Shown: positions 9,977 to 49,093, counted from the first letter of the stretch. The stretch is DNA of 64,000 nt from an uncultured bacterium (GCA_963759775.1 CAVXAH010000001.1:400682-464681), one strand, 5' to 3'. The notes: generated by a model not told the origin, from the sequence alone. Made by a program: numbers and translations.

Positions 9977-9991
9977 TATAACACTATCATG
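9977..9991 (+). promoter_or_regulatory. -10-like box + 6 nt + ATG (leaderless layout) at fusA
   Basis: TATAAC 9977-9982, ACTATC, ATG 9989. An additional TTGCAT-16-TATTCT lies at 9920-9947. Confidence 0.45.
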
Positions 9992-12141
9992 AATCGCGAT
10001 TATCCACTCGAGAAAGTCCGCAACTTCGGTATCATCGCCCACATCGACGCGGGCAAGACGACCACGTCTGAGCGCATTCTCTACTACACGGGTGCTCAGC
10101 ACAAGATCGGCGAAGTGCACGAAGGTGAGACGACCACCGACTGGATGGAACAGGAGCGCGAGCGCGGTATCACTATCACCGCCGCTGCCATCACCTGCTT
10201 CTGGATCGCAGACCTACGAGACAGACAAAAAGGACGTCGCCAAGAAATACTCGTTTCAACATCATCGACACGCCAGGCCACATCGACTTCACGGCGGAAG
10301 TGAAGCGCTCGATGCGCGTGCTCGACGGCGCAGTCGTCGTGTTCGACGGCGTTGCCGGCGTTGAACCGCAGTCTGAAACCAACTGGCGCTATGCTGACGA
10401 AGCAAACGTGCCGCGCATCTGTTTCATCAACAAGCTTGACCGCACTCGGCGCATCTTTTGAGAGCTCATACGCTTCCATTCTCGATCGTCTTTCAAAGAA
10501 GGCAGTGCGCATGCAGATCCCTATCGGCGAAGAGGGGAATCTGAGGGAGTGATCGACCTTCTCAAGATGAAGGCCTACAAGTTCGAAGGCGACATGGGCG
10601 ACAATGTGATCGAGGACGAAATTCCTGCAGAACTTCTTGAGGACGCAAAGAAGTATCGCGCACGAACTCATTGAGACGCATCGTTGAGAACGATGATGCG
10701 CGATGACCGCATACCTCGAAGGCAAGGAGCCTTCACTTGAGGATCTTAAGAAAACTCTCCGCAAGGCGGTTATCGCGAACAAAATCTTCCCGGTGTTTAC
10801 CGGCTCGCTCTCAAGAACAAGGGCGTGCAGCTCGTGCTCGACGCTGTCGTCGATTACCTCCCGTCTCCTCTTGATATTCCACCCGTGAAGGGTATCAACC
10901 CAAAGACGGGTGAAGAGACTCGTGCGCCATGCATATGATGACGAGCCGTTTACTGCGCTCGCCTTCAAGCTCCAGACCGACCCATTCGTCGGTCAGCTCA
11001 CCTTCTTCCGTGTGTACTCAGGCACGATCTCAGCAGGTTCCTATGTCTACAACGCAACGACCGGCAACAAGGAGCGCGTCGGCCGCATCGTGCGCCTCCA
11101 GGCAGACAAGCGCGAAGAAGTGAAGAAGGTTTTCGCAGGAGAGATCGCAGCAGCGGTCGGACTTAAGGACACGAAGACCTCGCACACGCTCTGCGATGAA
11201 GGCGAATCCAATCATTCTTGAGTCAGATCAAATTCCCAGAACCGGTGGTGTCACTTCGCATCGAGCCGAAGACCAAGGCTGACCAGGAGAAGATGGGTAT
11301 GGCGATGCGCAAGCTCGCGGACGAAGACCCAACCTTCCGCGTTACCACTGACGAAGAAACCGGCGAGACCATCATCTCAGGCATGGGTGAGCTTCACCTC
11401 GAGATTATCGTCGACCGCATGAAGCGCGAGTTCAGCGTTGAAGCAAACGTCGGCAAGCCGCAGGTGGCATACCGCGAGACCATTCTGGGTACTGCTGAGG
11501 CAGAAGGCAAGTACATCAAGCAGACTGGCGGTAAGGGTCAGTACGGTCACGTGAAGATTCGCATGAAGCAGCTTGAGCCGCTCGATCCGGAAAAGAAGAT
11601 TCCGAAGAACGTTACTCGCGAAGACCACTTCGAGTTCATCAACAACATCAAGGGAGGTGTTATTCCGCAGGAATTCATTCCCGCAGTTGAGAAGGGTATT
11701 CGCGAAGCGATGGATCGCGGCATTCTCGCAGGCTTCCAGATGGTGGACGTTTCTGTCGAGCTTTACGACGGTTCGTACCACGATGTGGACTCGTCCGAAA
11801 TCGCCTTCAAGATCGCAGCATCCATGGCCTTCCAGGAAGCAGCGCAGAAGCGAAAGCCGGTTATCCTCGAGCCGATCATGAAAGTTGAAGTCATTGTTCC
11901 AGAGCAGTTCATGGGTGACATCACCGGCTCACTCTCTGGGAAGCGCGGCCCGATTGAAGGCATGGAAGATCGCGGTATGAACAAAGCCATCCACGCAAAG
12001 GTGCCGCTTTCTGAAATGTTCGGCTACACGACGACACTTCGCTCTATGACCGAAGGCCGCGGCTCGATGACCATGGAATTCGATCACTACGATGTTGTTC
12101 CGAAAAACGTGGCAGATGAGATAATCGCGAAAAGAAAGTAA
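9989..12141 (+). pseudogene. fusA: elongation factor G, disrupted as assembled by at least 11 single-base indels between ~10200 and 11226
   Basis: G1 motif AHIDAGKTT at the start. The full EF-G sequence can be read by hopping frames (..AAITCFW / [17 protein letters not shown] / [63 protein letters not shown] / [15 protein letters not shown]... / NPIILES / IKFPEPVVS). The C-terminal 307 aa (11218..12141) are intact. Confidence 0.9.
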
Positions 12142-12170
12142 ATCCGGCGGACGAAACCTGCCCCGTAGCC

Positions 12171-12196
12171 AAACGCCGCCTTCCGAGGCGGCGTTT
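12171..12196 (+). terminator. hairpin after fusA
   Basis: AAACGCCGCC-TTCCGA-GGCGGCGTTT. Confidence 0.55.
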
Positions 12197-12254
12197 GTGG
12201 TACTGAGGTCATCGCAAAACGTAAATAAAAGTACACAAAACGCTTGTGCACAGC

Positions 12255-12284
12255 GGCCGCCCGAAAGGGCGGCCTGTGTTTTTA
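12255..12284 (+). terminator. rho-independent terminator (second, tandem) after fusA
   Basis: GGCCGCCC-GAAA-GGGCGGCC followed by TGTGTTTTTA. Confidence 0.7.
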
Positions 12285-12295
12285 TATGCCTCTTG

Positions 12296-12310
12296 TATAC
12301 TGTCCTCATG
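12296..12310 (+). promoter_or_regulatory. -10 box + 6 nt + ATG (leaderless layout)
   Basis: TATACT 12296-12301, GTCCTC, ATG 12308. Confidence 0.55.
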
Positions 12311-12697
12311 AAACATTACTTTGAAGGCAGAATAGCTCGTTTGAATTATTTTGTTGCAGGTATCGCGCTCTCAATTTCCTTGTCCATCGTCTCAAGCATA
12401 CTTAACAAAGTAGTTGGTGGGGTGGGAGCCAACCTGGTAGTTGGTCTCATCACGCTCGCCGCATTTATGCTAAGTCTTTCGCTTATGTTACGTCGCTTCC
12501 ATGACATGGGATGGAGCGGTTGGCATTCACTCTGGATGATTGTTCCGCTCGTGAACATCGTATTTTGTCTTATGCTCCTCTTCAAGCGCGGAACAGCGGG
12601 CGACAATCAGTACGGCAAAGATCCGGAGAAAGAAGTTCGTCTTTGGGAAAGCCTTTTCCCGAAAGCCCCGAGAATTTCTTCTCCACAACCCCTCTAG
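12308..12697 (+). CDS. DUF805-family inner membrane protein
   Basis: Start taken at the internal ATG. RLNYF...TM helices...LRRFHDMGWSGWHSLWMIVPLVNIVFCLMLLFKRGTAGDNQYGKDP matches the DUF805 signature (RRxHDxGxSGWW...G..G.N.YG). Confidence 0.8.
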   Translation: MKHYFEGRIARLNYFVAGIALSISLSIVSSILNKVVGGVGANLVVGLITLAAFMLSLSLMLRRFHDMGWSGWHSLWMIVPLVNIVFCLMLLFKRGTAGDNQYGKDPEKEVRLWESLFPKAPRISSPQPL

Positions 12698-12846
12698 CAC
12701 TTGCGCTTTCCGTAGGGCTCCGGTACATTTTCCCTAACGCATCTTGGCGTCGCTCTTTGGCTGTCTGCTTGGTTTAGTAGCGGGCCTGGAGTTTTTCCGA
12801 CTCGCGTCGGATTTATTTAACCGTTACCGATAATTACTAAATCGTA

Positions 12847-48001: not shown

Positions 48002-48259
48002 ATGAAAGCATTACATTGTGTCGCATTTGTTCTCGTCATCGTCGGTGCCCTCAATTGGGGCCTCGTTGGCATCGGAGGTTTTACCCAGCAAAACTGGAGT
48101 GTCGTGAACCTTCTTCTTGGTTCATGGCCTCAAGTTGAGTGGTTTGTCTATCTCCTTGTCGGTCTCTCAGGTGTTGTACTCGTCTTTACGCATAAGAGGG
48201 ACTGCAAGATGTGTGACTCTATGGGTAGCGCTATGGGAGGGGGAATGCCGAGAATGTAA
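48002..48259 (+). CDS. DUF378-family small membrane protein
   Basis: ...VLVIVGALNWGLVGIGGF... Confidence 0.75.
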   Translation: MKALHCVAFVLVIVGALNWGLVGIGGFTQQNWSVVNLLLGSWPQVEWFVYLLVGLSGVVLVFTHKRDCKMCDSMGSAMGGGMPRM

Positions 48260-48278
48260 ATTAGGTTTTTCTGTGCGC

Positions 48279-48313
48279 GAATCGCCGGCGCTCTGCGCCG
48301 GCGATTCTTTTTA
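48279..48313 (+). terminator. rho-independent terminator
   Basis: GAATCGCCGGCGC-TCT-GCGCCGGCGATTC followed by TTTTTAT. Confidence 0.8.
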
Positions 48314-48339
48314 TGGAATATGATACTGTGCGAAATATT

Positions 48340-48428
48340 GGAGGGGTGGCTGAGCGGCTGAAAGCGGCAGGTTGCTAACTTGCTATACGGGTAAAACCGT
48401 ATCGAGGGTTCGAATCCCTCCCCTTCCG
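48340..48428 (+). tRNA. tRNA-Ser (anticodon GCU), class II with long variable arm; CCA not encoded
   Basis: Hand fold: acceptor GGAGGGG/CCCTTCC (one G-U pair); D arm GCT-GAGCGGCTGAA-AGC; anticodon arm GCAGG-TTGCTAA-CTTGC; variable arm TACGG-GTAAAA-CCGTA; T arm GAGGG-TTCGAAT-CCCTC. Confidence 0.9.
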
Positions 48429-48435
48429 CACTGTT

Positions 48436-49047
48436 TTAGTGTGCAAGCGCAAGCGGAAGAATATGTTTCGCACCGGCTTCCGCAAGTGCATCAATCGCCG
48501 CCTGCATGGTTGCCCCCGTGGTAGTGACGTCGTCAAGAACTATATAAAGGAACGAGGGATCCAAAGTGCTTGACGTTCGAAATGCTCCGCGCATGTTTTC
48601 AAAACGCAGATGTCGTGGAAGTGATATTTGTGAGGCGGTATCTCGTGTGCGAAAGAGCATATCGCTCCTAACAGCAATTCCGACTTCCTTTGAAGCGCGT
48701 ACTGCAATTTCCTCCGTCTGGTTGTATTGGCGCTCCAGGAAGCGTTTCTTTCCAAGAGGCACCGGGACAAGAATTGGTCTCATCATCGTTTCGTCACTGT
48801 CGCGCAAATATTCGGAGAGAATGGCCCCTAAAAGTTGAAATGCATGCGTACTCCCGTGATATTTCGCTTCGTGGAGAAGTGCACGGACCCGCTGGTCATG
48901 AAAGGGAAGAAGGAAAAGTGTCGGAGGATTTGTTTTCGCCACAAACGTGGGCGTAAGAAGGGAAAGGAGTTCGTCCACCCCAATACCGCGCACGAGCGTC
49001 TCGTCGGCGCGCGGTGGAAAGAGGAAATCAAAAAATCGCCACATCAT
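48436..49047 (-). CDS. comF: ComF-family protein (phosphoribosyltransferase domain)
   Basis: ...FLYIVLDDVTTTGATMQAAIDAL, PRTase motif. Start taken at the internal ATG, since the ORF-track start overlaps pilM. Confidence 0.8.
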   Translation of the reverse strand: MMWRFFDFLFPPRADETLVRGIGVDELLSLLTPTFVAKTNPPTLFLLPFHDQRVRALLHEAKYHGSTHAFQLLGAILSEYLRDSDETMMRPILVPVPLGKKRFLERQYNQTEEIAVRASKEVGIAVRSDMLFRTRDTASQISLPRHLRFENMRGAFRTSSTLDPSFLYIVLDDVTTTGATMQAAIDALAEAGAKHILPLALAH

Positions 49048-49059
49048 TCTTCCACCATA
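49045..49059 (-). promoter_or_regulatory. -10-like box + 6 nt + ATG on the minus strand (leaderless comF)
   Basis: Minus strand reads TATGGT-GGAAGA-ATG. Confidence 0.45.
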
Positions 49060-49078
49060 CCGCACGCGCGCAATATGA

Positions 49079-49093
49079 TAGTATTTTCCTATG
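49079..49093 (+). promoter_or_regulatory. -10-like box + 6 nt + ATG (leaderless pilM)
   Basis: TAGTAT 49079-49084, TTTCCT, ATG 49091. Confidence 0.5.

Follow-up and report, generated by a model that had tools for sequence, protein, structure and literature searches.

Predicted leaderless transcription from positioned -10 boxes, and scarcity of Shine-Dalgarno sequences before core genes, in a Kaiserbacteria-like genome

In a 64,000-nt stretch of DNA from an uncultured bacterium (GCA_963759775.1 CAVXAH010000001.1:400682-464681; this whole stretch is called the window), a TAnnnT hexamer stands 6-7 nt before the ATG of many genes that open a transcription unit. The favored interpretation, to which a probability of about 0.78 was assigned, is that -10-only or extended -10 promoters would give leaderless mRNAs (leaders of 0-3 nt), that downstream genes would be translated by reinitiation inside operons, and that the core genome would do without Shine-Dalgarno (SD) sequences. 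The predicted origin of the window, whose G+C content is ~51%, is a Kaiserbacteria-like genome of the Parcubacteria, part of the candidate phyla radiation (CPR). Its PilM protein (49091-50191) shares 68-81% identity with proteins in 80 species-level genomes; most of the specifically labelled PilM-bearing genomes are Kaiserbacteria, Paceibacterota or Parcubacteria, and ~20 third-party-annotation assemblies are labelled Saccharibacteria. The S12 protein carries an internal insertion typical of the CPR. Public records of the 594,792-bp source contig include VKOR and DUF805 proteins identical to those of the window, and a short contig from sample ERR12037361 bears the identical VKOR gene.

The comparative set comprised ~90 related loci in all. 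Genes were called in 80 pilM-anchored loci (L001-L080; 1.25 Mb) and then clustered into 191 families, 127 non-internal and 64 internal, and the loci were weighted by family because orthologs should not count many times. Six further loci, with 74 non-internal genes, were assessed with public gene calls. Loci syntenic with the window at 27-46 kb, with a VKOR identity of only 56-62%, were compared, and three loci around rpsG were added. As our own gene caller is crude, conclusions were cross-checked with public gene calls and with an annotation-free scan of the window.

A -10 box at a fixed distance from first genes

The annotation-free scan took the first in-frame ATGs opening at least 70 codons on both strands (n = 169 open reading frames, ORFs). 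TAnnnT was found at spacer 6, that is, 6 nt before the ATG, in 13 of the 169, against 1.8 expected per spacer (Poisson p = 6e-8), the background rate being taken from spacers 12-40. Spacers 5, 8 and 10 gave 2-4 matches each among these ORFs, about half of them at internal ATGs. The ten strings of hexamer, 6 nt and ATG listed in a preliminary description of this DNA were all recovered in place, as were its three 9-nt variants (rsmA, ORF 1625-1966 and the gene at 2829), and the scan added peroxiredoxin (36881), the response regulator (53706) and ndk (27318). At fusA the string given there is present, but its TAnnnT label does not fit, since TATAAC lacks the final T and is non-canonical. Pfam domains start 2-17 residues past the proposed ATGs (DUF805, Zincin_1, PMSR, SelR, VKOR, HAD, PilM), so these ATGs are taken to be genuine start codons; public gene calls for the source agree on the starts of msrB, VKOR, DUF8173, peroxiredoxin and DUF805. 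All signature genes start with ATG, a statistic that is weak because start-calling favors ATG, and none carries an SD motif. The starts are as follows.

1964..1992: divergent pair of ORF 1625-1966 (-) and rsmA (+), start codons 24 bp apart
2814..2831 (+): start of the gene at 2829; perfect TATAAT + 9 nt, or TAATAT + 7 nt, + ATG
9977..9991 (+): fusA start; TATAAC + 6 nt + ATG, preceded by a small hairpin and T-run at 9955-9976
12296..12310 (+): DUF805 start; TATACT + 6 nt + ATG, with an intrinsic terminator (12255-12284) directly upstream
ATG at 27318: ndk start; TATTTT + 6 nt
28295..28309 (+): start of the four-transmembrane (4-TM, DUF2238-like) gene; TACAGT + 6 nt + ATG, with a terminator hairpin (28259-28284) directly upstream
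32321..32338 (+): zincin-like metallopeptidase start; extended -10 TGgTATGTT + 6 nt + ATG, divergent from the PLD-like gene
33241..33255 (+): msrA start; TACAAT + 6 nt + ATG, with a weak -35-like TTTATA 16 nt upstream
35153..35170 (-): msrB start; extended -10 TGgTAAAAT + 6 nt + ATG
35195..35209 (+): VKOR start; TACGAT + 6 nt + ATG, in a back-to-back arrangement with the promoter of msrB
36869..36883 (+): peroxiredoxin (AhpC/TSA, Bcp-like) start; TACAAT + 6 nt + ATG
38034..38048 (+): HAD hydrolase start; TAGGAT + 6 nt + ATG, 14 nt past the stop codon of the upstream gene
49045..49059 (-): comF start; TATGGT + 6 nt + ATGATG, the second ATG lying 9 nt from the box; membership doubtful
49076..49093 (+): pilM start; TGaTAGTAT + 6 nt + ATG
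53693..53708 (+): response-regulator start; TACAAT + 7 nt + ATG

The position of the box is conserved among relatives. Across the 127 non-internal families, weighted counts of TAnnnT were 19.3 at spacer 6, 8.0 at spacer 7 and 9.1 at spacer 9, on a background of ~1.8 (binomial p = 3e-14). Among the 64 internal families no comparable peak was seen: spacer 6 reached 5.4, a value to which conserved internal promoters contribute, and the other spacers 0-4.8. In the six loci assessed with public gene calls, the box was observed 5-9 nt before 28 of 74 non-internal genes, peaking at 6 (12 genes) and 7 nt (10 genes). The box lies exactly 6 nt before the pilM ATG in 54 of 70 orthologs, mostly as cATGGTAnTAT-N6-ATG. 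For the response regulator, TAnnnT occurs at spacer 5-9 in 91% of 66 orthologs, and a box at 5-9 nt precedes 80% of pilN and 71% of pilD orthologs, against 3-18% for the internal genes pilO, pilT, pilC and pilB.

The hexamer itself turns over while its position is kept (TACAAT to TATACT, TACAAT to TATAGT, TAGGAT to TACCAT). In the loci with 56-62% VKOR identity, a box at 6-8 nt is retained for 4-TM, msrA, msrB, VKOR, peroxiredoxin and HAD. The 4-TM ortholog in L082 has its own hairpin followed by TACAGT + 6 + ATG, and msrA orthologs (L082, L083, L086) have TATACT + 6 + ATG. The orthologous sequences are TGnTATACT + 7 + ATG for msrB, TACGAT + 7 or TATTGT + 8 for VKOR, TGgTATAGT + 6 (L082, L083, L086) or TGcTATAGT + 7 (L084) for peroxiredoxin, and TACCAT + 6 (L082/L083) or TAGGAT + 6 (L084) for HAD. 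The loci of the rpsG region show the same layout at TIM, RNase H, L28 and the divergent HIT/RecJ pair.

Could the peak be a by-product of A/T-rich intergenic composition and of in-frame TAA or TAG codons before first ATGs, with favorable cases picked? Six of the spacer-6 hexamers in the window do open with an in-frame stop, and the in-frame spacers 0, 3 and 9 are slightly raised. Such an origin predicts equal peaks at 3, 6, 9 and 12, however, whereas spacer 6 is 4-10 times higher, and the out-of-frame spacer 7 is the second peak with public gene calls. The peak also persists after hexamers with in-frame TAA or TAG are dropped (7 at spacer 6 against 1.55, p = 0.001), the third base of the pilM hexamer varies between G, T and C across the 54 orthologs, and the TG extension described below is independent of how ORFs are defined. 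The window scan, family counts, orthologs and public gene calls thus largely refute this explanation, which is considered very improbable.

The box has the character of a promoter element. When 34 independent families were aligned on the hexamer, the two extended -10 positions, which played no part in hexamer selection, showed T at 57% and G at 54% (p = 1e-4 and 4e-4, respectively); at hexamer position 5, A reached 61%. No -35 signal was detected among these 34 families, and in the window scan classical two-hexamer -35/-10 pairs fell below shuffle expectation. A classical sigma-70 -35/-10 model was dropped for a -10-only one since the two-hexamer scan gave no enrichment. Strong intrinsic terminators end 10-20 nt before the DUF805 and 4-TM boxes, and weaker modules of hairpin and T-run directly precede fusA and ndk. 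At fusA in L087 and L088, a hairpin and TTTTTATTTT lie no more than 10 nt before the ATG, the L088 box being TATTTT + 6. The T-run (TTTTTATTTT) is the only -10-like hexamer at fusA and ndk, an indication that terminator tails also act as promoters for the following unit. A module of hairpin, T-run and start codon within 6-25 nt was observed to recur in the window (9955-9991, 27288-27320, 12255-12310, 28259-28309) and in relatives (L087 ~10470-10504, L088 ~11750-11785).

How widespread is this layout? About 15 units in the window are well-supported as leaderless-type: ORF 1625-1966, rsmA, the gene at 2829, DUF805, 4-TM, the PLD-like gene in its pre-insertion form, the zincin-like peptidase, msrA, msrB, VKOR, peroxiredoxin, HAD, histidine phosphatase, pilM and the response regulator. 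Some seven are doubtful (fusA, ndk, rpsC, groES, the DUF378 gene, comF and the gene at 7569), so that ~15-22 of ~38 transcription units are reached when doubtful ones are counted. At least a dozen units of the window are leadered or otherwise built. Among them, rpsS combines a complete TTGACG-17-TATGTT promoter with a leader that contains a hairpin; pilin has TACAAT 28 nt upstream; rpsL, groEL and RNase J lack a positioned -10 box, groEL and RNase J having A/U-rich sequence upstream; infC (with a GTG start), secG and SD-led small genes also fall outside the signature. In relatives, ~32-38% of non-internal genes bear it. The preliminary description had called leaderless mRNAs the norm for first genes. 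Its placement of -10 boxes for starts at or next to the ATG is supported by all of the computational tests, but at ~40-55% of units it is accurate to call a -10 box with a short spacer the commonest single layout, and 'the norm' is somewhat too strong.

One gene on its list was lost from the set. As a candidate leaderless gene, comF was rejected: in the 42 orthologs that have a start codon in the conserved start column, this column matches the second ATG, and no conserved box precedes it. The comF ATG lies 14 nt from the pilM ATG in most relatives, so the comF promoter must lie inside pilM.

Shine-Dalgarno use and the proposed mode of initiation

SD sequences are nearly absent from the core genes. 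The share of first genes with GGAG, GAGG or AGGA at -18 to -4 was only 5%, both for the window and for the loci, control regions overall giving 4-15%. For internal genes of the loci the frequency was 5%, against 15% in the control; in the window it was 12% against 4%, with n = 24, too few to tell. The mean duplex energy with an anti-SD probe was weaker than in the control. Upstream of internal genes, positions -8 to -4 are A/T-rich and G-poor, and no discrete motif was found there beyond A/T richness and G avoidance at -1. Position -1 of all gene starts in the window and loci, first and internal alike, is G in 3%, and T is preferred (47%). The internal-gene contexts quoted in the preliminary description (cgtATG, catATG, cctATG) are present. 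The distances between stop and start codons cluster at -4 (131 cases) and at +1 to +6, in keeping with termination-reinitiation, the most likely mode of translation for genes within operons. The following cluster of the window illustrates the internal genes.

14670..26841 (+): ribosomal-protein/secY/adk/map cluster; internal genes without SD, joined by linkers of 3-15 nt that are rich in A/T and poor in G, or by overlaps of -4/-8

Accessory genes behave differently. AGGAG or GGAGG at spacer 5-8 was found before 21 of 170 genes of singleton or doubleton families, whereas in conserved families it preceded only 2 of the 1097 genes (Fisher p = 3e-17). Small genes led by AAGGAGG are wedged inside the ribosomal-protein cluster of L088. 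Canonical SD sites were also noted in relatives at L088 16845, 17140, 5307 and 10875(-), L006 6054-9093, and L050 4919 and 6562; the candidates in the window, at 26854, 38822 and 46785, all lack a Pfam family. The near-absence of SD motifs noted earlier is thus confirmed for core genes and does not extend to accessory genes of relatives, which keep canonical sites. SD use appears to be gone from the core genome, not from the lineage, and the SD-led accessory genes would be either recent imports or a sign that the ribosome still reads SD sequences. With such sites in relatives, loss of the anti-SD sequence cannot be assumed. No rRNA was detected in the window (Rfam), and universal 16S/23S motifs gave nothing real in L001-L080; a 515F-like match in L027 was rejected as 16S because it is spurious, sitting in protein-coding sequence.

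These upstream features bring in another explanation, in which TAnnnT is not a promoter but a non-SD ribosome-binding sequence, or an unstructured A/U-rich translation signal, in longer, leadered mRNAs, comparable to the A-rich stretch upstream of Bacteroidetes genes. The A/T-rich, G-poor stretch at -8 to -4 also precedes internal genes, with G nearly excluded at -1; TAnnnT also lies 3-6 nt before a few ribosomal-protein genes inside operons; and the leadered groEL, RNase J and pilin genes have A/U-rich leaders. A translation signal should nevertheless precede internal genes, yet most internal families have no positioned hexamer. The TG extension and the A at hexamer position 5 are features of promoters rather than of ribosome recruitment, terminators directly upstream leave no space for another promoter, and divergent pairs share one symmetric box. 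Taken together, these observations make a pure translation signal improbable.

If the box is indeed a promoter, the commonest unit start would consist of TAnnnT, often TGnTAnnnT, without a recognizable -35 element and with its last T 6-7 nt before the ATG. RNA polymerase would open the -10 region and initiate with ATP ~7 nt downstream, at the A of the ATG or, for the 9-nt variants, at a site 3 nt before it. The resulting mRNA would have no leader, or one of at most 3 nt, and no ribosome-binding site. The ribosome, together with initiator tRNA, would bind its 5'-terminal AUG directly, in the manner of other leaderless systems. Downstream genes of the operon, whose ATGs overlap the preceding stop codon or sit 1-6 nt away, would be translated by termination-reinitiation. 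The tight packing of the units would follow from the dispensable leader: terminator hairpins and T-runs border the -10 box of the next unit or run into it, one symmetric -10 region serves both genes of a divergent pair, and promoters lie within the end of the preceding gene. The peroxiredoxin box is such an internal promoter, lying within the 3' end of the upstream DUF8173 gene.

Several points weigh against this scheme. The transcription start point, like the mode of ribosome recruitment, is predicted from sequence, the former from E. coli-type geometry. Spacers of 9-13 nt (rsmA, pilN, secG, histidine phosphatase) imply short leaders and not zero-length ones. Several boxes are weak (fusA TATAAC, ndk TATTTT, HAD TAGGAT), and in-frame TAA or TAG opens 6 of the 13-14 spacer-6 hexamers of the window, the peak without them reaching only p = 0.001. 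Many frameshifts, apparently homopolymer indels, affect conserved genes of the window, so that any single spacing may be off by one. Finally, the canonical, well-spaced SD sequences on accessory genes of relatives suggest that the SD route may still operate.

The longer spacers also bear on a variant in which the promoters are real but transcription starts a few bases upstream of the ATG or at variable positions, giving leaders of 1-8 nt and scanning-free 5'-proximal initiation in place of classical leaderless 70S initiation. Conserved longer spacers are found at pilN (8-9), secG (10-11), histidine phosphatase (9-10) and rsmA with its partner (9), and infC apparently has a GTG ~8 nt after its predicted start. 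With the dominant spacing of exactly 6, however, the canonical +1 falls on the A of the ATG. This variant is judged unlikely, and it would be a refinement of leaderless initiation rather than something of a different kind, as transcripts with leaders of 5 nt or less are usually counted as leaderless in published work.

Comparison with known systems

Leaderless genes with a Pribnow box 6-8 nt from the start are known from Mycobacterium tuberculosis and were assigned to group C of GeneMarkS-2, which consists mainly of Actinobacteria, such as Mycobacterium and Streptomyces, and Deinococcus-Thermus (PMC6028130). As in group C, TAnnnT here lies 6-8 nt before the ATG of operon-first genes, there is no -35 requirement, and a third to half of operons are concerned (PMC6028130). 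Unlike in group C, where other and internal genes use SD sequences, core internal genes here have none and show -4 and +1 to +6 junctions; moreover, Parcubacteria/CPR do not figure among the lineages reported, and the G+C content is ~51% rather than high. The Bacteroidetes (group B) share the virtual absence of SD sequences from core genes and an A/T-rich, G-poor region just upstream of starts. There, however, one non-SD motif precedes all genes and no promoter box is positioned, whereas the -10 box here is positioned and, apart from a few internal promoters, occurs only at unit-first genes. Full-text literature searches on CPR, Patescibacteria, Parcubacteria and Saccharibacteria turned up no report of leaderless transcripts. 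The layout is thus the known leaderless architecture of group C, minus its SD component, in a lineage for which no such report was found.

Within the same superphylum, CCTCCT was detected in only 48% of Parcubacteria, and bS21 is often missing (Tsurumaki et al., 2022; PMC9297842). That loss of the anti-SD sequence fits the SD-free core genes described here, although Tsurumaki et al. examined rRNA and ribosomal proteins, whereas the present analysis concerns mRNA starts. Canonical SD sequences on accessory genes of relatives argue against a complete loss of SD recognition, or point to recent import. A broader proposal is that in Kaiserbacteria, and perhaps a wider Parcubacteria clade, the whole core genome is without SD sequences, with leaderless first genes, reinitiated downstream genes and SD sequences only on accessory or recent genes. 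This extension is tentative, with slightly less than an even chance of being correct. If true, it would describe a previously unreported case of a natural bacterium with the 5'-terminal-AUG pathway as its default mode of initiation, and a functional counterpart to the anti-SD and bS21 loss reported in Parcubacteria.

The window's own layout would be the mRNA-side counterpart to the anti-SD loss of many Parcubacteria and would indicate how such cells could still start translation. It would also add a deep-branching lineage to the debate on leaderless initiation as an ancestral trait. In practical terms, promoter positions could be read from start codons, which would aid operon prediction and expression design for the mostly uncultured CPR bacteria, and gene finders that expect a ribosome-binding site will misplace starts in these genomes, as for the L084 peroxiredoxin (11685). 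Its public call starts at a GTG inside the TGcTATAGT box, and an ATG 9 nt downstream fits the conserved layout; the call is thus probably a mis-annotated start that arose from overlooked leaderless architecture.

Divergent pairs invite a further comparison. ORF 1625-1966 and rsmA share one symmetric -10 region, TATTCTA (TATTCT on +, TAGAAT on -), 9 nt from each ATG; the -7T and -11A are reciprocally paired, the predicted start sites are 18 bp apart, and the intergenic space is 23 nt. With starts so placed, the 9-nt variant at this pair would correspond to a 3-nt leader. In symmetric bidirectional promoters, start sites lie 18 bp apart (Warman et al., 2021, as cited in PMC10268837), and the pair resembles these, so far as they are outlined in PMC10268837, in its reciprocal -7T/-11A and in its predicted 18-bp distance. 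It differs in that both transcripts would be mRNAs with 3-nt leaders in a 23-nt intergenic space and in that its starts are predicted. Among relatives, HIT and recJ diverge from start codons that are likewise 24 bp apart around one TAGTATCA / TGATACTA box (L087 2362/2386; L089 5295/5319), an arrangement matching the compact pair in the window.

Individual loci and an inserted element

Two further starts are separated from their boxes by copies of a short inserted element.

32169..32309 (-): PLD-like leader; TATGAT + 6 nt + orphan ATGAAT (32309-32292), then a 123-nt element (32291-32169)
51725..51858 (+): pilB leader; TAGATT + 6 nt + orphan ATGAAT (51725-51742), then a 116-nt element (51743-51858)

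The 123-nt element ends directly at the present PLD-like ATG (32168) and the 116-nt element directly at the present pilB ATG (51859). Copies of this non-coding element measure 60-123 nt; they end in the inverted repeats CCCGTTAGA(GGT)...(ACC)TCTAACGGG and have the direct repeat (A/G)TGAAY on both sides. Besides the two copies in the window, copies were found away from the pilB start in both orientations (L010 ~7887, L043 ~19127, L076 ~7982), at L035 ~4444 and in the pilB leaders of L012, L021, L029, L038, L047, L058 and L072. In most relatives pilB directly follows the preceding stop codon without an element, and the PLD ortholog in L082 has TATCAT + 6 + ATGAAC and no element. The sequence thus behaves like a miniature inverted-repeat transposable element (MITE) that would have inserted just after the start codon, duplicating TGAAY; for the PLD gene at least, this would have left the former leaderless ATG stranded. 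Both orphan ATGAAT sites, which had been listed as members of the leaderless set, are present as described, but they are insertion footprints of this MITE-like element. The stranded ATG now opens a mini-ORF of 11 or 17 codons. The leader folds very stably (-44.4 kcal/mol, z = -5.6), and its 14-bp closing helix takes in the first two bases of the present AUG, with compensatory changes at three pairs. A riboswitch reading of the pilB/PLD leader was rejected: there was no Rfam match even at E = 1, and the inverted repeats, flanking repeats and scattered copies favor a MITE.

For DUF805, the Pfam match begins at residue 5 and the public annotation gives an identical start. Scanning a metagenome collection with the DUF8173 protein yielded a single weak match of no use.

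The start of infC is seemingly a GTG ~13-15 nt past a -10-like box, TAGATT or TATAGT (window 31200, -; L084 4598, -). Its context, cttcc(c)aGTGGCT, is conserved, and an alternative ATG lies six codons downstream. The GTG seems to be a short-leadered non-AUG start for a factor that itself discriminates against such starts.

Multiple frameshifts and in-frame stops, with truncated Pfam matches, were observed in fusA (9989-11217) and the tuf N-terminus (12700-13293), and the same frameshift pattern in L14 (20039-20368), L5 (20797-21252), infC (30631-31200), ligA (60385-62163) and gatA (62811-63614). Two inspected shift sites in fusA are A5 and T3 homopolymers, and EF-G is intact in relatives (710-715 aa). 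The broken essential genes look like assembly indel error rather than gene decay.

Within the ribosomal-protein cluster, a strong terminator after rplB (17437-17463) interrupts the gene order (window 17437-17640), and the leader of rpsS holds a hairpin and T-run. At rpsL of relatives (L087, L088, L089 ~9530-9592), a conserved TATATA box is followed by a leader with a GACCC..GGGTC hairpin, possibly an attenuator. Between rpsG and fusA lies a 116-codon ORF (9575-9925, -) without a Pfam family, which shares a bidirectional terminator (9536-9568). This position holds different small genes, or none, in relatives, so that the str operon is variably split.

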